Part shown: positions 1 through 32,062 of the stretch, in pieces
Layout of the letters: every line of letters starts with the position of its first letter
How positions within the stretch are numbered: the stretch's first letter is position 1
Notes under the pieces: generated by a model
Seen by the model: the letters and a program-made list of their open reading frames with translations, nothing else
The model's database searches: none
Told to the model about the DNA's origin: nothing
Made by a program: the position numbers and the translations under genes
UHGV virus genome: UHGV-0205415
Source of the DNA: a virus
Length of the DNA stretch: 39,456 nucleotides
Reading direction: 5' to 3' (one strand)

Positions 1-59
1 TGACGTAGTTAAGTTGTTTGAGTTTGATACATTCGAAAGCCCAGCAAAGGAGGCAACCA

Positions 60-740
60 GTGAGCAAGATTGATTATCAAAAGCTTCGTGAAATCGCTGA
101 AAAAACAAAAATTGCTGGTGAAGCACCTGTAATGCCCTTCGATCAGCGAATTAATGCGCTTAACGATTTTATGAAGCACTTTTCGCCAGATATCGCGCTG
201 GCACTACTGGATGAACGGGAAAGAAACCAGCAATACATCAAAAGCCGCGACCAGGAGAACGAGGAAATTGCGCTAACGGTAGGGAAGCTGCGTGTTGAGC
301 TGGAAGCAGCAAAAAAGCGCATAGCAGAACTGGAAGCCGAACCTGTAAGCCAAGCTTACAACTTGGCAGAATTAATCGAAGGCATGGAAGTTTCCATTGA
401 TGTAAGCACTTGTGATGCTGATTTAGGTAATCGCTATTTCGGCACCGTCACCGAGGCGTTAGAACTTGATACTGCCAAGAATGGTCACATCCTCCTGGTT
501 CAGGACGCAGAGCCAAACTTCGATGTAAATGGCAACTCTCCGGTAACTCCGGATGCCTGGATAAGCTGTAGTGAGCGAATGCCGAACGACGCGCAGTGGT
601 GCGTAGTTGACGCCGAAGGCGGGTATTACGTGCAATGCTGGTCTGAAGGTCAAGGATGGCTTGGAGATGACATCAGCCTACGTGATTGCGATGTAATCAG
701 ATGGATGCCGCTACCAGAGCCGCCGCAGGAGATGAAGTGA
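60..740 (+). CDS. Ead/Ea22-like early protein with C-terminal DUF551-like motif (WMPLPEPP)
   Basis: ORF 18..740; GTG at 60 preceded by AAGGAGG; coiled-coil N-terminus and C-terminal motif typical of lambdoid Ea22/Ead proteins (recalled). Confidence 0.55.
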   Translation: MSKIDYQKLREIAEKTKIAGEAPVMPFDQRINALNDFMKHFSPDIALALLDERERNQQYIKSRDQENEEIALTVGKLRVELEAAKKRIAELEAEPVSQAYNLAELIEGMEVSIDVSTCDADLGNRYFGTVTEALELDTAKNGHILLVQDAEPNFDVNGNSPVTPDAWISCSERMPNDAQWCVVDAEGGYYVQCWSEGQGWLGDDISLRDCDVIRWMPLPEPPQEMK

Positions 741-1024
741 TGGACTCCTTCGCGAAATATACGATTATTGACTGGATGGCATCCCTTCAGGTTTTGCTCA
801 TCTGGTTTTATATGGCTTACAGGAGTGGACAGTGGATTGTCAGTGTAGCATGTGGCAAGGGATGGCGTTGGTGGAACCGAAAGAATAAAAAAGCACTAGC
901 CTTGGATTCGTTTTACGAAGCATTCAATCTTAACAGCCTTCAGCCTGGTTCTGTCATTGTAGTCACCACTCAAAGCGGCATGACGATACAAATTCACAAG
1001 CCAAAGGAGGAAGGTCGTGGCTAA
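740..1024 (+). CDS. hypothetical protein
   Basis: ATG at 740 overlaps upstream stop (TGATG); track ORF 686..1024 trimmed to this start. Confidence 0.4.
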   Translation: MDSFAKYTIIDWMASLQVLLIWFYMAYRSGQWIVSVACGKGWRWWNRKNKKALALDSFYEAFNLNSLQPGSVIVVTTQSGMTIQIHKPKEEGRG

Positions 1025-1301
1025 CCTGCAACTTGCCGTCAAAGGTGAATACTTCGATGCAATGATTCGCGGAGAGAAAACGGAAGAGTATCGCTTGTGT
1101 AATGACTACTGGAATAAGCGAATTATGTTCCGGGAGTATGACCGCCTGATTATCACAAAGGGATATCCGAAGCGCGACGATTCCAGCCGTAGAATTGATG
1201 TTCCGTATGACGGATATGAAATCAAGACAATCACACATCCGCACTTCGGCGATAAACCGGTTAAGGTATACGCGATAAAGGTAAATATCGGCACTGAATA
1301 A
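1017..1301 (+). CDS. ASCH/PUA-like domain protein (tentative)
   Basis: GTG start preceded by AAGGAGG; small protein resembling phage ASCH-domain proteins (recalled, weak). Confidence 0.45.
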   Translation: MANLQLAVKGEYFDAMIRGEKTEEYRLCNDYWNKRIMFREYDRLIITKGYPKRDDSSRRIDVPYDGYEIKTITHPHFGDKPVKVYAIKVNIGTE

Positions 1302-1305
1302 CAAT

Positions 1306-1362
1306 CCTCGCACTCGCGGGGATTTCTTTTATCTGAACTCGCTACGGCGGGTTTTGTTTTTT
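1306..1362 (+). terminator. tandem intrinsic terminator candidates
   Basis: CCTCGC-actc-GCGGGG hairpin then ATTTCTTTT; second CTCGC-tacg-GCGGG hairpin then TTTTGTTTTTT. Confidence 0.45.
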
Positions 1363-1372
1363 GGAGATGATT

Positions 1373-1672
1373 ATGGCCTGTTCAACATTCAACCCTCTAA
1401 CATTACAGAAATACCAGCCAGACCCTGAAGATTTATGCTCACTGTGTGGCGGAAATCATGGTAAAGCCGCCATGATCGAATGTAAGGACAAAATCCACAT
1501 TTGCCTTAATTGCGTTGATGTCCTCGTTGATATCAAAAATGAGAGAGAAGATAAAAAGCGTAGCGAGGCTGTTCGCGCCTTAGATTCATGGATGCGAGAT
1601 GGGTATAGTGCTGCGCAAATTTATGACTTAGCCATTTCAAAAGGCGAAATACCAGGTGTGCGAATCGAATAA
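1373..1672 (+). CDS. hypothetical protein with Cys-x2-Cys pairs (possible zinc ribbon)
   Basis: ORF 1361..1672; ATG at 1373 six nt after GGAG; CSLCGG...CLNC motif. Confidence 0.45.
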   Translation: MACSTFNPLTLQKYQPDPEDLCSLCGGNHGKAAMIECKDKIHICLNCVDVLVDIKNEREDKKRSEAVRALDSWMRDGYSAAQIYDLAISKGEIPGVRIE

Positions 1673-1707
1673 GAAGCGCACTCAAGCATCTTTTGGAGAA
1701 ATCACAA

Positions 1708-1875
1708 ATGCACTTCCGAGTCACAGGTGAATGGAATGGAGAGCCATTCAACAGAGTTATCGAAGCCGAGAACATCAGCGACTGCTATGACCACTGGATG
1801 CTGTGGGCGCAGATAGCACATGCAGACGTAACCAATATTCGAATTGAAGAACTGAAAGAACACCAAGCCGCCTGA
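1708..1875 (+). CDS. hypothetical small protein
   Basis: ORF 1693..1875; internal ATG at 1708 after GGAG. Confidence 0.35.
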   Translation: MHFRVTGEWNGEPFNRVIEAENISDCYDHWMLWAQIAHADVTNIRIEELKEHQAA

Positions 1876-1901
1876 TGGCGGTTTTTTATTGGAGACAAGA
1901 A

Positions 1902-2246
1902 ATGTCAGATTTGGCTATGAAGGTTTTGAAATGGCAATCGACAGGCGATGTCGGCATCAGTAGCGCAACTCTTGCCTCAATCGCATGTGGACTGAAAAAG
2001 AATATCTATGGTCATCACTTCGGCGCTCCACATGACGCAGCCGATTTCCGGCGATGCGTTGCACTTGTTGAGCAGATTCCAGAAATCAGAGATTCATTCG
2101 GCAAGGTTGCAAAGCGCGTTCCGGCATTCAAAGGAATCCTCAACGAATGGGATTCACTCGTTGCTCTGTTGAAGTCTGAAATGAAGATACACGGAAACAA
2201 AGCACCAGAGACTTACAGAAGAATTAGCGAGTTACGCAAGGACTAA
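1902..2246 (+). CDS. hypothetical protein
   Basis: ORF 1875..2246; ATG at 1902 after GGAG; CCGCC-tgat-GGCGG plus T7 hairpin at 1868..1888 just upstream. Confidence 0.4.
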   Translation: MSDLAMKVLKWQSTGDVGISSATLASIACGLKKNIYGHHFGAPHDAADFRRCVALVEQIPEIRDSFGKVAKRVPAFKGILNEWDSLVALLKSEMKIHGNKAPETYRRISELRKD

Positions 2247-2250
2247 CCAC

Positions 2251-2328
2251 AGCCTCACACTCGATGAGGCCTGTTCATTTCTCAAGATATCCAGACCTGC
2301 CATTGCCGCATCAATGCGGTTTTTTTAT
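2251..2328 (+). terminator. intrinsic terminator candidates downstream of the ea-region cassette
   Basis: GCCTCA-cactcga-TGAGGC hairpin at 2251..2270; CCGCA-tcaa-TGCGG followed by TTTTTTTAT at 2306..2328. Confidence 0.5.
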
Positions 2329-2371
2329 TGCCTGATTTGCAGGTTCGATTCCCTATTCGGAGATAGCACTC

Positions 2372-2572
2372 ATGCAACACGAACTACAACCTGATTCACT
2401 GGTTGATTTGAAATTCATCATGGCTGATACTGGCTTCGGTAAAACCTTCATCTACGACCGGATTAAGTCCGGCGACCTGCCAAAAGCCAAAGTTATCCAC
2501 GGGCGAGCAAGATGGTTATATCGTGACCATTGTGAATTCAAAAATAAGCTCTTAAGCCGCGCCAATGGGTAA
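2372..2572 (+). CDS. xis: AlpA-family excisionase/transcriptional regulator
   Basis: 66-aa HTH protein immediately upstream of integrase on same strand; resembles AlpA/Xis family (recalled). Confidence 0.6.
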   Translation: MQHELQPDSLVDLKFIMADTGFGKTFIYDRIKSGDLPKAKVIHGRARWLYRDHCEFKNKLLSRANG

Positions 2573-2821
2573 AATAGCGGGTAAAATATTTCTTACATCT
2601 AAAAAACATCATTCCAATCAATCCCCTGCCGCGCCAAGTAGATGTCTGCAGGGGACACCATTTATCAGTTCGCTCCCATCCGTACTAGTCCGCAAAATCC
2701 CCTGCATATCAAGCCTTCCATAGATTCACAGTTCGTAATGGTTCGCGTCAGATCGTTGACAGCCGCACACCATGACGGGTAAAAAGTGGATAAAATAATT
2801 TTACCCACCGGATTTTTACCC

Positions 2822-3979
2822 ATGCTCACCGTTAAGCAGATTGAAGCAGCAAAGCCGAAAGAAAAACCATACCGCCTTCTCGATGGTAATGGCCTGTACC
2901 TTTATGTTCCTGTATCCGGGAAAAAGGTATGGCAGCTTCGCTACAAGATTGACGGTAAGGAAAAAATACTGACCGTCGGAAAATATCCGCTTATGACTTT
3001 GCAGGAGGCAAGGGATAAAGCATGGACCGCGAGGAAAGACATCTCGGTTGGCATCGATCCGGTAAAAGCGAAAAAGGCTTCGTCTAATAACAATTCCTTT
3101 AGCGCCATTTACAAGGAATGGTACGAGCACAAGAAGCAAGTATGGTCAGTAGGGTATGCGACTGAACTTGCCAAAATGTTTGATGACGACATTTTACCCA
3201 TCATCGGCGGCCTTGAGATTCAGGATATTGAGCCGATGCAACTGCTGGAAGTAATCCGCAGATTTGAAGATCGCGGTGCAATGGAGCGAGCCAACAAAGC
3301 CCGCAGAAGATGCGGCGAGGTTTTCCGTTACGCTATTGTCACCGGAAGGGCTAAATATAACCCAGCACCTGACCTTGCTGACGCCATGAAAGGATACCGC
3401 AAGAAGAACTTCCCGTTTCTTCCAGCAGACCAGATCCCTGCATTCAACAAAGCACTGGCAACATTTTCAGGAAGCATCGTATCGCTCATTGCGACCAAAG
3501 TTTTACGCTACACAGCCCTAAGAACGAAAGAGCTTCGTTCCATGCAATGGAAGAACGTCGATTTTGAAAACAGGATTATCACTATCGACGCCAGTGTGAT
3601 GAAGGGCCGCAAGATTCATGTTGTTCCTATGTCAGACCAGGTGGTTGAACTTCTCACTACGCTAAGCTCCATCACTAAACCAGTATCAGAGTTTGTTTTT
3701 GCCGGGCGCAACGATAAGAAGAAGCCAATCTGCGAGAACGCGGTATTGCTTGTGATCAAACAAATCGGCTATGAGGGTCTGGAAAGCGGTCACGGATTCA
3801 GGCATGAATTCAGCACGATTATGAACGAGCACGAATGGCCTGCCGACGCCATTGAAGTGCAACTGGCACATGCCAACGGCGGTTCTGTGCGCGGGATTTA
3901 CAACCATGCTCAGTATCTCGATAAGCGCAGAGAAATGATGCAGTGGTGGGCGGACTGGCTTGATGAGAAGGTGGAGTGA
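2822..3979 (+). CDS. int: tyrosine site-specific integrase (Arm-binding N-terminal domain type); alternative GTG start at 2786
   Basis: MLTVKQIEAAKPKEKPYRL N-terminus, C-terminal HxxR...Y catalytic region typical of phage integrases. Confidence 0.9.
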   Translation: MLTVKQIEAAKPKEKPYRLLDGNGLYLYVPVSGKKVWQLRYKIDGKEKILTVGKYPLMTLQEARDKAWTARKDISVGIDPVKAKKASSNNNSFSAIYKEWYEHKKQVWSVGYATELAKMFDDDILPIIGGLEIQDIEPMQLLEVIRRFEDRGAMERANKARRRCGEVFRYAIVTGRAKYNPAPDLADAMKGYRKKNFPFLPADQIPAFNKALATFSGSIVSLIATKVLRYTALRTKELRSMQWKNVDFENRIITIDASVMKGRKIHVVPMSDQVVELLTTLSSITKPVSEFVFAGRNDKKKPICENAVLLVIKQIGYEGLESGHGFRHEFSTIMNEHEWPADAIEVQLAHANGGSVRGIYNHAQYLDKRREMMQWWADWLDEKVE

Positions 3980-4059: not shown

Positions 4060-6057
4060 TTATATTGCAGATATTATAAAACATAATAATTCTTCATATC
4101 TTATTCCATATCGCTCACCCCCTTCTATAGATATTCTGCGTTCTCCAGTATCATATTCAATTAATTTTTCATCACCGGATTCTTCATCAAAAATTATCTT
4201 TTTAGCAATTACTGGTTCGTATTCAGTTTCCCATTTATCATAGCAAAAAAGACCATAGTCGTTTGCATCAAGCCCTTCTTCAGCAAATGCTTTATATACA
4301 TCTTGGGCAATAATGCCAAAATGTAATCTAGCATTTTCTCCTTTTTCAATTACTGAATCTATAAATCTAAAACAACAAACCAAACCCTTTATTTTATATG
4401 CAACACGTCTCTCTGCATCAGTAATCGGTCTTTTATCAGTCTTAACTCGACCATCCGATGTGTTAATCGTTGAAGTGCCAGCAAATATTGTATTCCACCT
4501 TCTGGATGCTGAACCGCAATTTCTAGCGTTATCTGTTGCTGGTTGTACCGACGCATCAAAACGAGCATAATTATTCTCATCAGAAACAGGTCCCATCAAT
4601 CCACTCAAAAAAGGGAGCCCGCTCTGATTAGCAATTATTAATTGGTTGTCACCTGAAGAAATTGCCGAACCGGCATTGGTTCCGATAAATATATTACCTG
4701 TTCCAGAGCTTAACGATCTACCAGATCTATATCCAAGCATTACATTGTTACTTGCCGAACCAATAGAATTAAGTGAGTCGGCTCCTACTGCGACATTATT
4801 CATCCCTGTAGATGTGCCTGTATAAGGGTTATCTATAGAAGAAATCCCTCTTCCTGATCCGCTACCAATATATGTATTGTTATCTCCATTTGTAATCTCC
4901 CTTCCGGATGCATTGCCTATAAATGTGTTATTATTTAGAATGTTATAAGACAACCTTTTGCCTGATTGGTCTGTAACAATTCCAGCTCGCATTCCAGCCG
5001 CTCGACCTATTGCAACATTACCACTACCAGTATGAAGTTGTTGTAATGCACTTGATCCTACTGCAACATTAAAATTTCCTTCTTTATTTTCATTTAGGGC
5101 ATCGCGCCCAATTCCAATTATGTTACTAGCTGTGGTTGATTTTTTGCACGCATTCACACCAATTGCTACAATCTCAGTGCCAGTGCATGGCGATGTATCT
5201 GTGAGATCGTCTTGAAGGGTATCACCTGATAATACACCTGTCCCAATTGCTGTAATGTTATTGCCCGTGCTAATGTTTCTTCCTGCACTTGGTCCAATCG
5301 CAACAACTTGCCCGGATATATCATTTCCATTATATATCTTGCCAGCATCAAAACCAAAAAAAACATTTCCAATTGTCTGAGCAGGATTTGCAAATGGAAT
5401 AGGTTCGTCTCCTTTACTTTGTATTATTTTACCAGGGCCATAAAATTTTCCATTAATATAGTTCTCAATTAAATAAGTACCTTGTGGAACATAAACACCG
5501 TCAGGTGAAACTGAAGATGCATAGGAAAATATATGTGTTGCGTCAATATTGCCATTAACAATGTCGCTAACATCTTCATGTTTTACAAAATCAAGAATAC
5601 TAATATTCTCTGCATTTTTATCATGCTGTGTTCGTTTTGTAGAATTAATTAAAGGTTGTTTTACTGTGATTAATGAATCACCAAGCCCATCATCTGAACT
5701 TAAAAGTTCTTGCCTTAACTGATCCGGGTCATACTTCAGCACATTAGGAAAATAAAACTGCTGCGCACCATATGCATCATAAACAGCCATAGAATGGCCT
5801 TGCACAGTTACGAACTTGGCAATCTGTCCGTTATATACCGGATATCCGGCAGCGTTAATGATTATTGGTTGCGAAACAGGAATGTGAGAACCGTCTTCGT
5901 TCTCTACATAAACCTGAATCTGGTTTTCAGGATTTACCGGGTCAGTGTCAATTTTACCGATATAAATTTTGCCATTGGCTACGGCTTTAAAAGAACGCGC
6001 CATAGTGAAGAGTTGCGAAGGCATACTCACTACAACATTGGCTGTAATGTCTGTCAT
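4060..6057 (-). CDS. tailspike protein: P22 gp9-like head-binding N-terminus, repeat-rich central domain, C-terminal S74-type intramolecular chaperone domain
   Basis: N-terminus [11 protein letters not shown]...[11 protein letters not shown]...VTVQGHSMA...LKYDPDQ matches P22 tailspike head-binding domain (recalled); C-terminus resembles autoproteolytic chaperone of endosialidase/tail fibers. Confidence 0.85.
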
Positions 6058-6461: not shown

Positions 6462-6683
6462 TTAGTTATCAAAAAGTCCGTACGTTTCTTCTTCTTCAGG
6501 TGTAAGGGGAAGAATCTCTACTCTATCTATAGATACCTTTTCAATGTACCCATGAGGTCTACTTAAAATTAAAGCTCTCTCATGCCACAGAACTCCAAGA
6601 ATGTGATACCTCCCAGCATCGCCTTTTACCCTGGCTCTTCCTTTGATTCTTGGCGGCATAATGCCATATTTTTTCTTTGCCAT
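6462..6683 (-). CDS. hypothetical basic 73-aa protein, translationally coupled to upstream gene
   Basis: ATG overlaps upstream stop (TAATG); no family recognised. Confidence 0.4.
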   Translation of the reverse strand: MAKKKYGIMPPRIKGRARVKGDAGRYHILGVLWHERALILSRPHGYIEKVSIDRVEILPLTPEEEETYGLFDN

Positions 6684-7411
6684 TATGCAACATTACTCCC
6701 ATGAATCAGGTGTTGTAGTGCTTTAACACCTTCCGCATTGTAGCGGAATGCTTCCACCTGTTTGCTGGAATGCGCAGATTTATCCAGGAAGAACTTACCG
6801 TACTGCTCAGTTTTGAGGTTGTTTGCGTTAGCAATGCGACCAATCTTGTTGGCCGTTACTCCAAGCTGCTCTGCAACCTCCCCTGCTGAGTAGTAATGCT
6901 CTTCTATTGCTGGAAGAGGTATTGCATTAAAACCAACGATCGGGTTTATTATGCTTGCTGCCGCAGTCTGCTTTGCTTCCGGCGCAAGATTTGGCATCAA
7001 ATCGAACAGATTGGTAACAGCTTCAACCGTCATTTTCAATGTTCGCGCCTGGCGATACTCAACAAGTCCACTCGACGATTTACCGCTTTTAATGTGCGCT
7101 TCTTGCATACTTTCAAGTTGGTCTACAAGTGAGCGGCGAACAGCTTTAGATTCACGAGCAGCCACTCGAAGGGCTTGCTTAATTGACATAACAACTTTTT
7201 CAGAAGTTGTCTTGTTTGATTTTTGAACTACGAAAATTTCGTAGTGCTCACCTTCAAGTTCATCCTTAATGCGTGCAATAAAGTCGTTATTGCGGACTTC
7301 TTTTTCCCCGCACTGTCTACGAGCATGATTGACCATCTCTAACAGGTACTGGCTATCAATGGTTTTATCCGTGACAACGGATCCGATGTTTGCTACATTC
7401 TTAAAAGTCAT
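6683..7411 (-). CDS. Rha/antirepressor-family regulatory protein (tentative)
   Basis: ORF 6683..7462; ATG at 7411 with AAGGA RBS; domain resemblance to phage Rha/KilA-C antirepressors (recalled, moderate). Confidence 0.5.
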   Translation of the reverse strand: MTFKNVANIGSVVTDKTIDSQYLLEMVNHARRQCGEKEVRNNDFIARIKDELEGEHYEIFVVQKSNKTTSEKVVMSIKQALRVAARESKAVRRSLVDQLESMQEAHIKSGKSSSGLVEYRQARTLKMTVEAVTNLFDLMPNLAPEAKQTAAASIINPIVGFNAIPLPAIEEHYYSAGEVAEQLGVTANKIGRIANANNLKTEQYGKFFLDKSAHSSKQVEAFRYNAEGVKALQHLIHGSNVA

Positions 7412-7449
7412 TAGGCATTCCTTATGTGGTAGTAAGGGTGTGACATAGG

Positions 7450-7480
7450 CCGCCAGCAGCACACTGGCGGTTTTCTTTTT
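7450..7480 (+). terminator. plus-strand intrinsic terminator-like hairpin inside the minus-strand antirepressor operon
   Basis: CCGCCAG-cagcaca-CTGGCGG followed by TTTTCTTTTT. Confidence 0.3.
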
Positions 7481-7499
7481 GCGCCGTCCGGCGCACCAA

Positions 7500-8138
7500 T
7501 CAATGAATCCATTCCTCGCCGCGAAGTTTTGCCAGCATTGGCTGAGCGTTCTTTACGACAAAATTGTTGGTATCAAGATTCTTCATTTCACGAAGAAGTG
7601 ATTTCTTGGTTTCTTCTGACATGTAGCGAGTCTCATATGCAATATCGTAAATCCTTCCAGAAAGCTCAGAACCAATTTGCTTCATTCCTGGGTAGATGTG
7701 TTTGCACATTTGTTGACTCTTCTCCATCCACAATTGTAAGTAGCAGAGATTAACCAGCTCTTCGTCAGTAAACTGTTTTGCAATCGGTGAGCATTCTGCC
7801 TGCCGATCCAAAATATCCAGCACCCAGCGGCGGAACTCTTTGGCCTTGGGCGTAGAAGCAAACATCGCCACCAAGTGAGCGCCTCGGAGCGAGTAAACTC
7901 TGACCGATTTGTTACGTAAGCTATTGTTTATCCCGTTGACCTTCATATTGAGGGTCAATGACATTGAGTCGGAAAACTCGTCAGCATTACGGGCATAAAT
8001 TTGGCTGATGGCATCAGTTTTTTTATAGCCGAGAGCCTTAGCTAGTTCGGTGGAGGTAAACCAGATAGACCCACCCTCTGTTACAGGGTTAAAGGTGAAT
8101 CCTTGGAAGTTATAATCTGATTTTGCTACAATGTTCAT
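7500..8138 (-). CDS. ant: antirepressor with BRO-N-like domain
   Basis: ORF 7500..8222; ATG at 8138 with AAGGAAA RBS; BRO-N-like segment FTSTELAKALGY...VRVYSLRGAHLVAMF. Confidence 0.7.
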   Translation of the reverse strand: MNIVAKSDYNFQGFTFNPVTEGGSIWFTSTELAKALGYKKTDAISQIYARNADEFSDSMSLTLNMKVNGINNSLRNKSVRVYSLRGAHLVAMFASTPKAKEFRRWVLDILDRQAECSPIAKQFTDEELVNLCYLQLWMEKSQQMCKHIYPGMKQIGSELSGRIYDIAYETRYMSEETKKSLLREMKNLDTNNFVVKNAQPMLAKLRGEEWIH

Positions 8139-8214
8139 GTTAGTTTCCTTGCATACGGTTACTGACATAGAGGCCCGGTTTGTGTTCGCGCACTGCCGGG
8201 CTTCACTATTTTTA
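8123..8214 (+). ncRNA. candidate sar-like antisense RNA covering the ant ribosome-binding site
   Basis: Perfect TATAAT at 8111..8116 on plus strand inside ant 5' end; GCCCGG...CCGGGC hairpin plus T-run in arc-ant intergenic region; analogy to P22 sar RNA. Confidence 0.3.
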
Positions 8215-8385
8215 CTGGGCATTAACTCTTTCCTCTCTCAGGCTTTTAGCCAGTCGCTGCACAATCGCAGAGTTGATAGAAATTCCATCCATTTCAGCAA
8301 CACGTCTAATCTCCTCCTTCATTCGCGCTGGCAAACGAAGCTGGAAACTTTGACTTTTACGACCTGTGTAAAGCACATCTTTCAT
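8212..8385 (-). CDS. arc: Arc-like ribbon-helix-helix repressor
   Basis: ORF 8212..8412; ATG at 8385 with GGAGG RBS; FQLRLPARMKEEIRRVAE...ISINSAIVQRL resembles P22 Arc. Confidence 0.7.
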   Translation of the reverse strand: MKDVLYTGRKSQSFQLRLPARMKEEIRRVAEMDGISINSAIVQRLAKSLREERVNAQ

Positions 8386-29596: not shown

Positions 29597-32062
29597 TCAG
29601 AATCCTCCTTTCTTCTTGGACTGCGGTTCCTCGCGTTCACGGCGGCGCATTTCAGCAGACTGTTGGTCTGTGTCATAAATAGCGCCATTTGCCTGAATGC
29701 AATACACCGTGCCGGTATTGCCATGACGATTGAGACGAAGGATTAGTTCGGTTTCACCAGGTGGAACACTGTCATCAAAAGCACCTTCACGATGGATCCC
29801 CACCCAATAATCGCAATCCTGTTCAATCTGCCCTGTATCTCGTGAGTCACTTGGTAATGGGCGTTTATTGGTTCGGCTTTCCAGTGCGCGGTTAAGCTGC
29901 GTCAGAAGCACAACAACGCAATCAAGCTCTTTGGCAAGGTTCTTCAGTCCTTTGGTGATCATGCCGTAAGCAAGGTCGTTGCGATCGGCCTTCTCAGCGG
30001 TCATTAGTGTCAGGTAATCGACCAGAATCATGCCAACACATCCTTTTTCTCGCTTGATTCGACGGCTTTCGCTAACGATTTGAGCCAGAGATAATCCCGG
30101 CGTGTCGTCGATGTAAAGCAGGTCGATTTCACTCAAACGATTAGCTGTTTCGATCGCCCTGTTGAAGTCACCATCGTAATCACCCTGATAGCCGTCATCA
30201 GCGTCATTTGTCGCCGGAAGGTAAAAAATATTCGGGTTAACACCAGACTTCTGCCCTACCAGTTTTTCCAGTATCTGATCACCTGGCATTTCAAGGCTGA
30301 ACATCAGAGCGGGCTTTTTCTCATGCACTGCGCAGTTGATTGCCATCTGGCTGTATAGCGTGGTGTTGTGGGTTAGAATGTATCCGTCAGTTGCATACAA
30401 ATGTCTCTCGTGGGATACCATGATGCAAATGCACTCTTCACGTCCAATATACTCAACCGACGTGATAACAGGCGCACTTGTTTTGATGCGTTTTGCAGTG
30501 AATTTTTGCTTCAGGCGTGGAGATTTTATGTGTGATAGAACCTCATCAGGCAACCTGATTGCGCAAATATGGGCATCCATACCTTTGCGCATTTCTCCCT
30601 TATAACTGAATTTCGGCTCCTGTTTGGTTGTCATACGACACACGCCACCAAGAGAATGCACCAGCCGCTTTACACCATCTGACAGGAACTTGCTTGCCGA
30701 GCTAAAGCGCAGGGCATTATTTCCTTCAACCCAACCATCGGTTTCAAGTAATCCGCATAGAACATCAATACGAGTTTGCTTATCAGCAGAAAAAATAATA
30801 TCCGGGATAATTTTAATCTCTGACATCCGGCCGTAGATACCAAGCCGTTGCATAACCCGCGTAAGAGATAATTTGCGGCTAAACTTGTGAGATAGGGAGT
30901 AATCGCAGCCAGAAACATGCCTGACTTCAATATCGTCACCCACTTCAGATCTTACTCGCTCAATGATGTATGGTTCCGTCATGCTGATTCGTGGCGTACC
31001 TGCAAGATTTCCATCGCCAAGTAACGCACCTAACAGCCATGGGCTAATCCCTAAATCAACAGGCAATCCGAAGTCACCGCTAATACCAGGAACATGAATG
31101 CGGCTTTGATAGCGAACGCATTCCATCATGTCCCGTAGGCGGCAGGTGTCTACAACATCAACGCCACCGGTAATACGGTTACTATGAATTTCCCACAAAT
31201 GATCATCCGCGCAATCAACGGTTCTTCCGTCAGAGAACGTAACTCGGTAAATATCTCGCTCCCCTTGAGGAAAAACTCCAGACACGAATGATGGTTGTCC
31301 ATCCACTGATGCTAGGGAATCTCCAACACATACGTCACGAAATGTTGTCCATGAACCATCAGCAAGCAAAATGCGTGAATTAAGCGGTTGCGCTTTCCCC
31401 ATCTTAGGGCGAGCGCCAATGACAAACAGAGAGCCTTTCACCAGACCTTTCGGTGACAGCATCCTGTCCAGCGATGGGATCCCTGTGCTCATTCCTCGTT
31501 GTTCGCCTGACGGGTCAAATCGCTTCTCAAGGTCGCTAACCCAGTCTTCCATGACCTCACCAAATGAGCGAAGGCCGCGACGCGATCCGGTTTTTGCATG
31601 GTCTGTCAGTTGCGTGAAAATCGCCTGAATAGCTTCGTACTTCTGCGTTGCAGTCATTCCGTTGCGGGAATAGAGCAATTCCGTCGCTTCAGTCATGCGG
31701 TTGATGGCGTAGCGTTCCATTGCGGTTTCACGAACCTGCATTGCATAGGCAACGATGTTTGCTGCGCTTGGCGTGTTCTTTGCGATCTCAGCGATATAAG
31801 CAAAACCGCCAACAGACGCCGTTAACGATTTACGCTCCAGTTCATCGAAAAGCGTCAGGCCATCTACTGGCTTTTGCTCCCGGTGCATTCTGGTTATTTC
31901 TTCGAAAAGGATTTTGTGTGGTCGGCAGTAAAATGAATCAGGCTTCAGCATCGCCAGAACTTTCTGGACGCGCTCACTGCTGTCATCATCCAGAAGCAAT
32001 CCACCAATCACCGCCTGCTCTGCCTCGATGCTATGGGGCGGCGCATAAAAATTATCGGTCAT
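29597..32062 (-). CDS. replicative DnaB-family helicase interrupted by an intein
   Basis: ORF 29597..32077; ATG at 32062 after GAGGGTG; DnaB motifs GARPKMGK ... TTLYSQMAINCAV ... LMFSLEMP flank a 343-aa insertion. Confidence 0.85.
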   Translation of the reverse strand: MTDNFYAPPHSIEAEQAVIGGLLLDDDSSERVQKVLAMLKPDSFYCRPHKILFEEITRMHREQKPVDGLTLFDELERKSLTASVGGFAYIAEIAKNTPSAANIVAYAMQVRETAMERYAINRMTEATELLYSRNGMTATQKYEAIQAIFTQLTDHAKTGSRRGLRSFGEVMEDWVSDLEKRFDPSGEQRGMSTGIPSLDRMLSPKGLVKGSLFVIGARPKMGKAQPLNSRILLADGSWTTFRDVCVGDSLASVDGQPSFVSGVFPQGERDIYRVTFSDGRTVDCADDHLWEIHSNRITGGVDVVDTCRLRDMMECVRYQSRIHVPGISGDFGLPVDLGISPWLLGALLGDGNLAGTPRISMTEPYIIERVRSEVGDDIEVRHVSGCDYSLSHKFSRKLSLTRVMQRLGIYGRMSEIKIIPDIIFSADKQTRIDVLCGLLETDGWVEGNNALRFSSASKFLSDGVKRLVHSLGGVCRMTTKQEPKFSYKGEMRKGMDAHICAIRLPDEVLSHIKSPRLKQKFTAKRIKTSAPVITSVEYIGREECICIMVSHERHLYATDGYILTHNTTLYSQMAINCAVHEKKPALMFSLEMPGDQILEKLVGQKSGVNPNIFYLPATNDADDGYQGDYDGDFNRAIETANRLSEIDLLYIDDTPGLSLAQIVSESRRIKREKGCVGMILVDYLTLMTAEKADRNDLAYGMITKGLKNLAKELDCVVVLLTQLNRALESRTNKRPLPSDSRDTGQIEQDCDYWVGIHREGAFDDSVPPGETELILRLNRHGNTGTVYCIQANGAIYDTDQQSAEMRRREREEPQSKKKGGF
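30365..31393 (-). mobile_element. intein with LAGLIDADG homing endonuclease motifs inserted in helicase Walker A (P-loop)
   Basis: Insertion between GK and TT of P-loop; ends in THN with Thr as +1 residue; LLGALLGDGN and LCGLLETDGW motifs; begins with Ala (no Cys/Ser nucleophile). Confidence 0.75.

Follow-up and report, generated by a model that had tools for sequence, protein, structure and literature searches.

A P22-type tailspike with a predicted YadA-like β-roll and an S74 chaperone in a CUS-3-like phage genome

The spikes of P22-like phages studied so far are, with few exceptions, enzymes built on a right-handed β-helix. P22 gp9, Sf6 gp14 and HK620 gp9 share one head-binding domain. Behind it they have a right-handed parallel β-helix that acts as an endorhamnosidase or endo-N-acetylglucosaminidase, as well as C-terminal trimerisation domains of their own, and they have no S74 chaperone. 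CUS-3 (CP000711), a P22-like Escherichia coli prophage with a K1 endosialidase spike, follows another plan, in which the head-binding domain is reportedly joined to a foreign receptor domain and an S74 chaperone. Here we analyse the tailspike gene of the UHGV virus genome UHGV-0205415, a stretch of 39,456 nucleotides (henceforth the window), which shares both the virion type and the three-part plan with CUS-3. Its head-binding domain is 96.6% identical in amino acid sequence to that of CUS-3 over residues 1-117, and the two spikes share the 'boundary sequence' position of the junction. By contrast, where CUS-3 degrades the K1 capsule with a GH58 β-propeller endosialidase, the spike of the window has a predicted β-roll of 17-residue repeats and no recognisable catalytic module. 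The three-part architecture has its precedent in CUS-3 and is not new, and module swapping, the P22 head-binding and S74 families and near-identical NCBI sequences are also already known; what is new is the unusual binding domain on a P22-type spike. With a probability of about 65%, we read the gene as the intact, functional tailspike (the gene 9 equivalent) of a CUS-3/HK620-like temperate E. coli podovirus, formed by cassette exchange and using a β-roll head, with an S74 chaperone behind it, as a glycan adhesin.

The N-terminal module is the head-binding domain of P22 gp9, which an earlier note made from the DNA sequence alone had recognised. PF09008 (Head_binding) matches residues 1-113 over the full length of the profile (Pfam; E 3.5e-67, bit score 224 with the cutoff at 24), the P22 gp9 structures align over residues 1-115 at E about 1e-50, and P22 and Sf6 structures together, including in-situ ones, reach 1e-50 to 3e-77. 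Past residue 115, PDB and phage DNA comparisons revealed no similarity to the P22 endorhamnosidase. At the DNA level, deposited P22-like phages match the tailspike gene from nucleotide 1 to about 345 only, with 85-97% identity overall and 93-97% for P22-like coliphages, and the DNA past this point has no match among 50,697 phage records. Base composition changes as well: the GC content at third codon positions (GC3) is 0.41 in the head-binding part, 0.16 at residues 116-280, 0.26 at residues 281-533 and 0.14 in the chaperone, in a window with an overall GC content of 0.469, and GC returns to about 0.49 right past the stop codon, in the integrase gene. The chimeric tailspike with an AT-rich remainder that the earlier note had described is thus borne out, with all three named modules present, a head-binding part whose DNA matches coliphages and a remainder whose DNA matches none.

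Two mosaic junctions fall in the neck and N-cap that follow the head-binding domain, one at about residues 115-127 and one at residue 157. A subset of E. coli prophage spikes retains 88-90% DNA identity up to nucleotide 472, and the spike of the SCZE5 prophage is 90% identical in protein sequence through residue 157 (…ISILDF) and unrelated thereafter. Sf6 and HK620 are also similar in the neck and N-cap: Sf6 gp14 aligns to residues 1-209, with the portion beyond the head-binding domain (Sf6 tailspike residues 129-217) reaching E 4e-7 by itself, while the HK620 spike aligns weakly to about residue 239. Beyond the N-cap no similarity to the P22, Sf6 or HK620 spikes was found. The claim that everything behind the head-binding domain is unrelated to the P22 endorhamnosidase therefore stands for P22, nothing of which aligns, but has to be qualified for residues 116 to about 224, which have their homologue in the Sf6 neck and N-cap. 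In the gene for the SCZE5 spike itself (NZ_CP051222.1, 1578132-1580352), an IS1A element inserted at the 3' end shortens the product to 509 residues.

At the protein level, what follows the head-binding domain shares 47-50% identity with spikes of unrelated lytic phages of the genus Vectrevirus. Vectrevirus vB_EcoP-G3A1, for instance, has a second tailspike of 507 residues that aligns to residues 127-665 with 47% identity (E 6e-157), and five Vectrevirus phages and one Raoultella phage carry the homologous gene at the genome end, in the place of the SP6/K1-5-like second spike. These spikes (vB_EcoP-G3A1 gp048, 101117UKE2, CC1/CC2 and Raoultella phage vB_Ro_P3a gp046) are homologous over this whole length, with N-cap, repeats, stalk and chaperone arranged alike. 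They differ in belonging to lytic SP6/K1-5-like phages, in bearing a short N-terminus for adaptor binding in place of the P22 head-binding domain, and in keeping the canonical DFGAKGDG motif of the N-cap, which is degenerate in the spike of the window. Among homologues in a large protein database, the receptor module stands behind P22 Head_binding in P0001, P0003 and P0005, behind Tail_spike_N (PF18668) in P0004, P0008-10, P0013 and P0015, and behind short N-termini and others elsewhere. Identity to the spike is 60-67% for the relatives P0002-P0006. Since the same module follows no fewer than three adaptors (PF09008, PF18668 and the short N-terminus of the Vectrevirus spikes), we conclude that residues ~127-665 form a mobile cassette, for which the conserved neck and N-cap appear to be the splice site. 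Module exchange in itself is ordinary textbook biology. The GC3 of the cassette is 0.14-0.26 here versus 0.36 in the Vectrevirus homologue genes, and this higher AT content suggests that it came from a donor of lower GC. Vectrevirus CC1 and CC2 infect ST131 strain EC958 only (PMC10433417), and for these closest phages the literature gives this host range and no receptor.

The central domain of the cassette is built of tandem repeats. The Gly/Asn-containing motifs singled out in the earlier note were located at residues 266 (GNNITAIG), 420 (NNVAVG), 437 (NNVMLG) and 454 (GNIFIG), and BLOSUM62 autocorrelation over residues 225-500 shows only one strong peak, 0.309 at lag 17, versus a maximum of -0.137 at any lag in 200 shuffles. 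Twelve units fit one 17-residue register with the consensus tG.xN[VI]a[IV]G..Ag..l.s. Strict NxVAIGxxS-like motifs occur three times, versus a shuffle mean of 0.02, and the repeats are non-random. The roll of YadA is reportedly marked by the motif NSVAIGxxS. Residues 225-500, used alone or as a 14-sequence profile, gave no Pfam, NCBIfam or PDB sequence match even at E <= 10, and in Pfam the YadA_head family is matched by two of 50 homologues.

We modelled residues 116-665 and 116-533 as monomers with AlphaFold2 from a 50-sequence alignment, obtaining a mean predicted local distance difference test (pLDDT) score of 78.6 for the former and of 78.5, with a predicted template modelling score of 0.70, for the latter. 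In both models pLDDT is about 90-97 over the repeats, which form short strands every 17 residues. It is low only at residues of about 500-530, within the stalk (residues 486-533; pLDDT below 50), in line with the expectation that this segment intertwines in the trimer. Structure prediction had been proposed in the earlier note as a check of this domain, and the central model indeed superposes on YadA-type heads of bacterial trimeric autotransporter adhesins (TAAs): UspA1 (3pr7; score 14.9, 6.2 Å over 213 residues, 20% identity), BpaC (7o23; 13.6, 3.4 Å over 171 residues, 25%), CbpF (9u93; 13.4, 4.8 Å over 211 residues, 18%), the collagen-binding head of YadA (1p9h; 12.7, 2.4 Å over 139 residues, 28%) and BoaA (3s6l; 11.4, 3.0 Å over 129 residues, 29%). 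The domain is thus predicted to be a YadA-like β-roll of roughly 12 turns, one per chain and three per spike, and probably left-handed like the matched structures, from which the handedness is taken. A Foldseek search of the whole model against PDB is dominated by the chaperone and uninformative for the central domain. PDB 9vvr was rejected as a template for the whole receptor domain: the hit spans 28-554 with an alignment accuracy of 0.60, is carried by the GAKGDG motif of the N-cap and by the chaperone, and consists mostly of gaps in the centre. The Kp7 depolymerase (7y5s) and AS12 gp42 (6eu4) were likewise set aside as receptor-domain relatives, having only the N-cap and chaperone in common with the spike.

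The YadA-like heads (YadA, UspA1, BpaC, BoaA and CbpF) resemble the spike in predicted fold and repeat motif, but the spike is a virion protein without signal peptide, stalk or YadA β-barrel anchor, and its period is 17 as opposed to 14-15. We rejected true membership of the trimeric autotransporters, as neither the spike nor 15 sampled relatives of the repeat domain match the PF03895 anchor or a stalk model. These relatives come from a profile of the central domain (276 positions), which was run against 1.84 billion representative proteins and matched 47,116 of them at E <= 0.001 and 18,576 at E <= 1e-10, where the family count of 47,000+ refers to clusters at 50% identity. Many members are 1,500-5,800 residues long and contain 10-28 matched blocks (P0121-P0263). 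Eight of the 15 sampled members end in Peptidase_S74, six (about 40%) have no Pfam domain and none matches a model of the YadA anchor, head or stalk. In a Foldseek search of predicted viral structures, the central model had 77 matches at E <= 0.001, comprising uncharacterised phage proteins, chlorovirus/mimivirus-type "Peptidase S74 domain-containing" proteins and one "Adhesin YadA [Clandestinovirus]". Based on the breadth of the profile and Foldseek matches, we conclude that the domain is not unique to this gene but is a widespread viral fibre repeat, which has no curated model and no solved structure. The idea of a novel receptor domain with swapped specificity is therefore right in that the cassette is foreign, while 'novel' overstates the case for a member of a large viral fibre-repeat family with a predicted fold that is known, the YadA-like β-roll.

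The C-terminal module was also anticipated correctly, as one resembling self-cleaving chaperones. Peptidase_S74 (PF13884) matches residues 534-596 in Pfam (E 4.5e-10), at the extreme C-terminus and with the chaperone fold. By phmmer, residues 500-660 align to the solved chaperone fragments 3gw6 (K1F endosialidase), 3gud (GA-1 gp12), 4uw8 (T5 pb1), 7y5s (the Klebsiella phage Kp7 fibre; PMC12737672), 6eu4 (Acinetobacter AS12 gp42) and 9vvr, and the top Foldseek matches are 3gw6, 4uw8 and 3gud with a probability of 1.00. Ser534 is aligned with the Ala of the non-cleavable endoNF S911A construct in 3gw6 and Lys539 with K916, while the released GA-1 chaperone chain in 3gud begins at the residue aligned to Ser534. 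T533, S534, D535 and K539 are each at least 90% conserved among 50 homologues. Just upstream, residues 486-533 align to the pre-chaperone segments of 7y5s, 6eu4, 3gw6 and 4uw8, and positions 128-160 of 160 of PF12219, the end of the endosialidase stalk, align to residues 501-533 at E 0.002, which is below the cutoff. An identity as GH58 endosialidase was rejected, since these last 33 stalk residues are all that matches and the catalytic parts of 4hiz and 3gw6 are not matched. Because the mechanism of the S74 chaperone family is reportedly established, we infer that cleavage takes place between Thr533 and Ser534, which would give a mature spike of 533 residues.

We propose that the N-terminal 115 residues would dock the trimer on a P22-type tail hub, and that recombination in the neck and N-cap (to about residues 157-224) would have joined the foreign AT-rich cassette to them. 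Each chain of the trimer would fold its twelve 17-residue repeats into a β-roll like the YadA-like head of TAAs, and three such β-rolls would make up the distal spike body, about 12 turns long and comparable in length to the P22 β-helix. The S74 chaperone would nucleate trimerisation of the preceding stalk and then cut itself off through the Ser534/Lys539 dyad. As an adhesin, the β-roll head would most likely bind a surface glycan, O-antigen or capsule, on a narrow set of E. coli strains. Binding without cleavage is favoured by the adhesin fold together with the lack of a detectable catalytic family or constellation, and the spike would probably be non-enzymatic like the T5 pb1 fibre. T5 pb1 is the best functional analogy for binding of the adhesin type: its C-terminal domain (4uw8) is a trimeric fibre tip that binds O-antigen without enzymatic activity, and the same self-cleaving S74 chaperone stands behind it, but the receptor-binding fold of pb1 is different and homology is limited to the pre-cleavage segment and chaperone.

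Several points weigh against this proposal. Its weakest step is binding without cleavage, because to our knowledge all characterised P22-like tailspikes are enzymes, which would make a purely adhesive spike atypical for the virion type. Pfam searches with the whole protein and with the central domain gave no YadA_head match on the tailspike itself, and the repeat period is 17 versus 14 in the YadA head. Within the close subfamily a large number of charged positions never vary, and these could make up an active site that went unrecognised; in some homologues PF12708 matches extend into the start of the repeat region. For all family members, moreover, the β-roll spike is a proposal from sequence and predicted structure.

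The central domain might instead be a depolymerase (hydrolase or lyase) or another glycan-modifying enzyme, either a compact right-handed β-helix mis-modelled by AlphaFold or a β-roll scaffold with a new active site at the subunit interfaces, so that the spike would cut through O-antigen or capsule as the spikes of P22, Sf6, HK620 and CUS-3 do. Besides the enzymatic activity of the characterised spikes, this would account for an N-cap with homology to the first part of the β-helix domains of Sf6 and HK620, for the pectate-lyase-like PF12708 matches of many homologues (which reach profile positions 177-193 of 213 in P0166 and P0175) and for the invariance of D237, D279, D283, E295, D319, E323 and E387 in the subfamily. 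However, 17 residues are too few for a three-stranded right-handed rung, and right-handed helices superpose on the central model only at a root-mean-square deviation above 9 Å, compared with 2.4-3.4 Å for the YadA, BoaA and BpaC heads. PF12708 matches this protein at E 0.0033 over only 27 residues, within the region of residues 116-224 and below the cutoff, and searches of Pfam, NCBIfam and PDB matched no glycosidase or lyase family. The wider family conserves only glycines in the repeats, which argues for a scaffold rather than a conserved catalytic site. We could not demonstrate a right-handed β-helix depolymerase of the PF12708 kind, with its active site and rungs of about 22 residues or longer, and regard an enzymatic central domain in general as possible but unlikely.

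It is a good deal less probable that the AlphaFold2 monomer model is an artefact, the repeats forming one intertwined triple β-helix shaft in the trimer and the receptor site lying in the tip at residues of about 486-533. S74 chaperones are said to fold triple β-helices and β-prisms (as described for 3gw6, 3gud and 4uw8), residues 486-533 are poorly modelled as a monomer, and the giant family members with their 10-28 repeat blocks resemble long fibre shafts. Against this, the repeats are predicted as a self-closed solenoid at a monomer pLDDT of 90-97, which is unusual for obligately intertwined segments; they superpose closely, at 25-29% identity, on the YadA, BoaA and BpaC heads, in which each chain forms its own roll; and the NxVAIGxxS-like motif is the YadA-roll motif. 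Finally, a decaying remnant of a defective prophage without current function would fit the rarity of the gene, found at full length in one of 5,426 complete E. coli genomes (the head-binding part being present in 1,138), and its strong AT bias in codon usage relative to the rest of the phage, but is very improbable given an unbroken 665-codon frame, phage structural genes that are all intact, conservation of the catalytic dyad and structural glycines, 98-99% identical full-length copies from independent sources and a window that reads as a complete phage genome.

Indeed, an identical protein is encoded on a 323-kb gut-metagenome scaffold, adjoining int, yfdC and mlaA, while E. coli SJC33 carries a 97.9% identical gene in a prophage, at the corresponding position on the argW side, and 52 sequences at 99% identity make up an NCBI cluster labelled 'tail fiber domain-containing protein'. 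With copies of 97.9-99% identity in a chromosome, a gut scaffold and an NCBI cluster, the tailspike sequence appears to be maintained. We found no characterised tailspike with a known receptor close to this protein, the kind of match that the earlier note had named as contradicting its proposal; the near-identical sequences are unnamed prophage proteins with generic names only. The literature yielded no relevant paper on phage tailspikes or fibres with a YadA-like head, nor on this spike type or its receptor, and a survey of O-serogroup tailspikes (PMC10408124) does not cover the type. Two apparent precedents were discarded: the remark of a giant-virus paper on YadA in phage fibres cites a phi29 gp12 paper, and a literature match to Deep-Blue/Vp4 was false, arising from a coincidence of author names.

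Judging by the predicted fold, an adhesin-type β-roll can be combined with the same adaptor to the tail and the same self-cleaving chaperone as in other spikes. More tentatively, a P22-type podovirus may attach via a non-enzymatic β-roll that is evolutionarily linked to bacterial TAA heads, and proteins that combine the repeat with S74 may constitute a large class of receptor-binding fibres of viruses. This class might span 500-residue spikes to 5,000-residue giants in phages and giant viruses, with adhesive modules exchanged with bacterial adhesins, though we hold this no more firmly. If true, short-tailed phages could infect without degrading surface polysaccharide. Receptor domains set the strain range of phages, and such parts are swapped in engineered phages and tailocins. 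At 665 residues the tailspike is a small, tractable member of its family; solving one member would allow viral fibre proteins to be annotated by the tens of thousands and would also test depolymerase-free infection by a short-tailed phage.

Table 1. Features of the tailspike gene and of other loci in the window
Feature	Position	Strand	Basis or remark
Complete tailspike open reading frame (ORF), 665 aa + stop	4060..6057	-	ATG start, uninterrupted; Pfam and PHROG tail spike families (ORF list, family searches)
P22-type head-binding (tail-attachment) domain, aa 1-115	5713..6057	-	PF09008, P22/Sf6 structures, DNA identity
Neck/linker and α/β N-cap, aa 116-224	5386..5712	-	Homologous to receptor-domain start of Sf6-/HK620-type spikes
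Central receptor-binding domain (predicted), aa 225-485	4603..5385	-	~12 tandem 17-residue repeats, predicted YadA-like β-roll
Short pre-cleavage stalk, aa 486-533, probably an intertwined trimeric segment	4459..4602	-	PF12219 end, low pLDDT, pre-chaperone alignments
C-terminal intramolecular chaperone / Peptidase S74 auto-processing domain (predicted), aa 534-665	4063..4458	-	PF13884, Foldseek, phmmer
Codons Ser534…Lys539 (SDGRVK), predicted catalytic dyad; predicted scissile bond Thr533-Ser534	4441..4458	-	Alignment to 3gw6, 3gud
AT-rich block, GC 0.31-0.42, GC3 0.14-0.26	4060..5700	-	Coincides with the imported receptor-plus-chaperone cassette
Ead/Ea22 and DUF551 early ORFs	1..2786		Joined to int
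Tyrosine integrase gene (int)	2786..3979	+	Convergent with the tailspike gene
Two tandem anti-repressor genes	6683..8222	-	259 aa (phrog_1726) and 240 aa (Ant; Bro-N/P22_AR_C-type matches)
Two small ORFs	8498..9249	+	Low-GC patch (about 0.35-0.41); Arc-like 127 aa and coiled-coil 123 aa
DnaB-type replicative helicase ORF, 826 aa	29597..32077	-	483-aa helicase + 343-aa insert
Helicase insert	30365..31393	-	Matches to gp41-1 and DnaB inteins, PI-SceI/LAGLIDADG

The window is a P22-like (Lederbergvirus-type) genome in which terminase, portal, scaffold/coat, head-closure, needle and ejection proteins were all found. A 24-kb stretch of its backbone is 96% identical to CUS-3, with 72% of the stretch covered, while its identity to HK620, Kapi1 and E212 is 94-96%; by this measure CUS-3 is the closest backbone relative. 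The tailspike gene is flanked by the P22-like virion set (portal, coat, needle and ejection proteins) with Ant/Arc and int; it lies downstream of Arc/Mnt- and Ant-type genes, in the gene 9 position of P22-like phages, and P22, Sf6 and HK620 have their spike genes in the same place by ant/arc and int. At the left end of the window, int is joined to early genes and not to host yfdC/argW, and no tRNA was found in the window. Since int abuts early genes and no tRNA is present, the 39.5 kb read as a complete excised or circular phage genome rather than as a flanked prophage.

Some further features of the window deserve mention (Table 1). The two tandem anti-repressor genes lie just upstream of the tailspike gene and have Arc-family genes on both sides, which amounts to a doubled immI-like region. 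The two small ORFs between the Ant genes and the gene for a gene-16-type ejection protein occupy a typical moron/immunity-region slot, where SJC33 encodes a Rap1a/Tai immunity protein. The DnaB-type ORF consists of the helicase of Stx-converting phages, 99-100% identical on both sides, and an insert that was found in none of 87 deposited phage records with an otherwise 99% identical helicase. The insert interrupts the Walker A motif (GARPKMGK/T, the slash marking its position), begins with Ala and ends in …THN followed by Thr. Its family matches suggest an intein of full length that includes a homing endonuclease.

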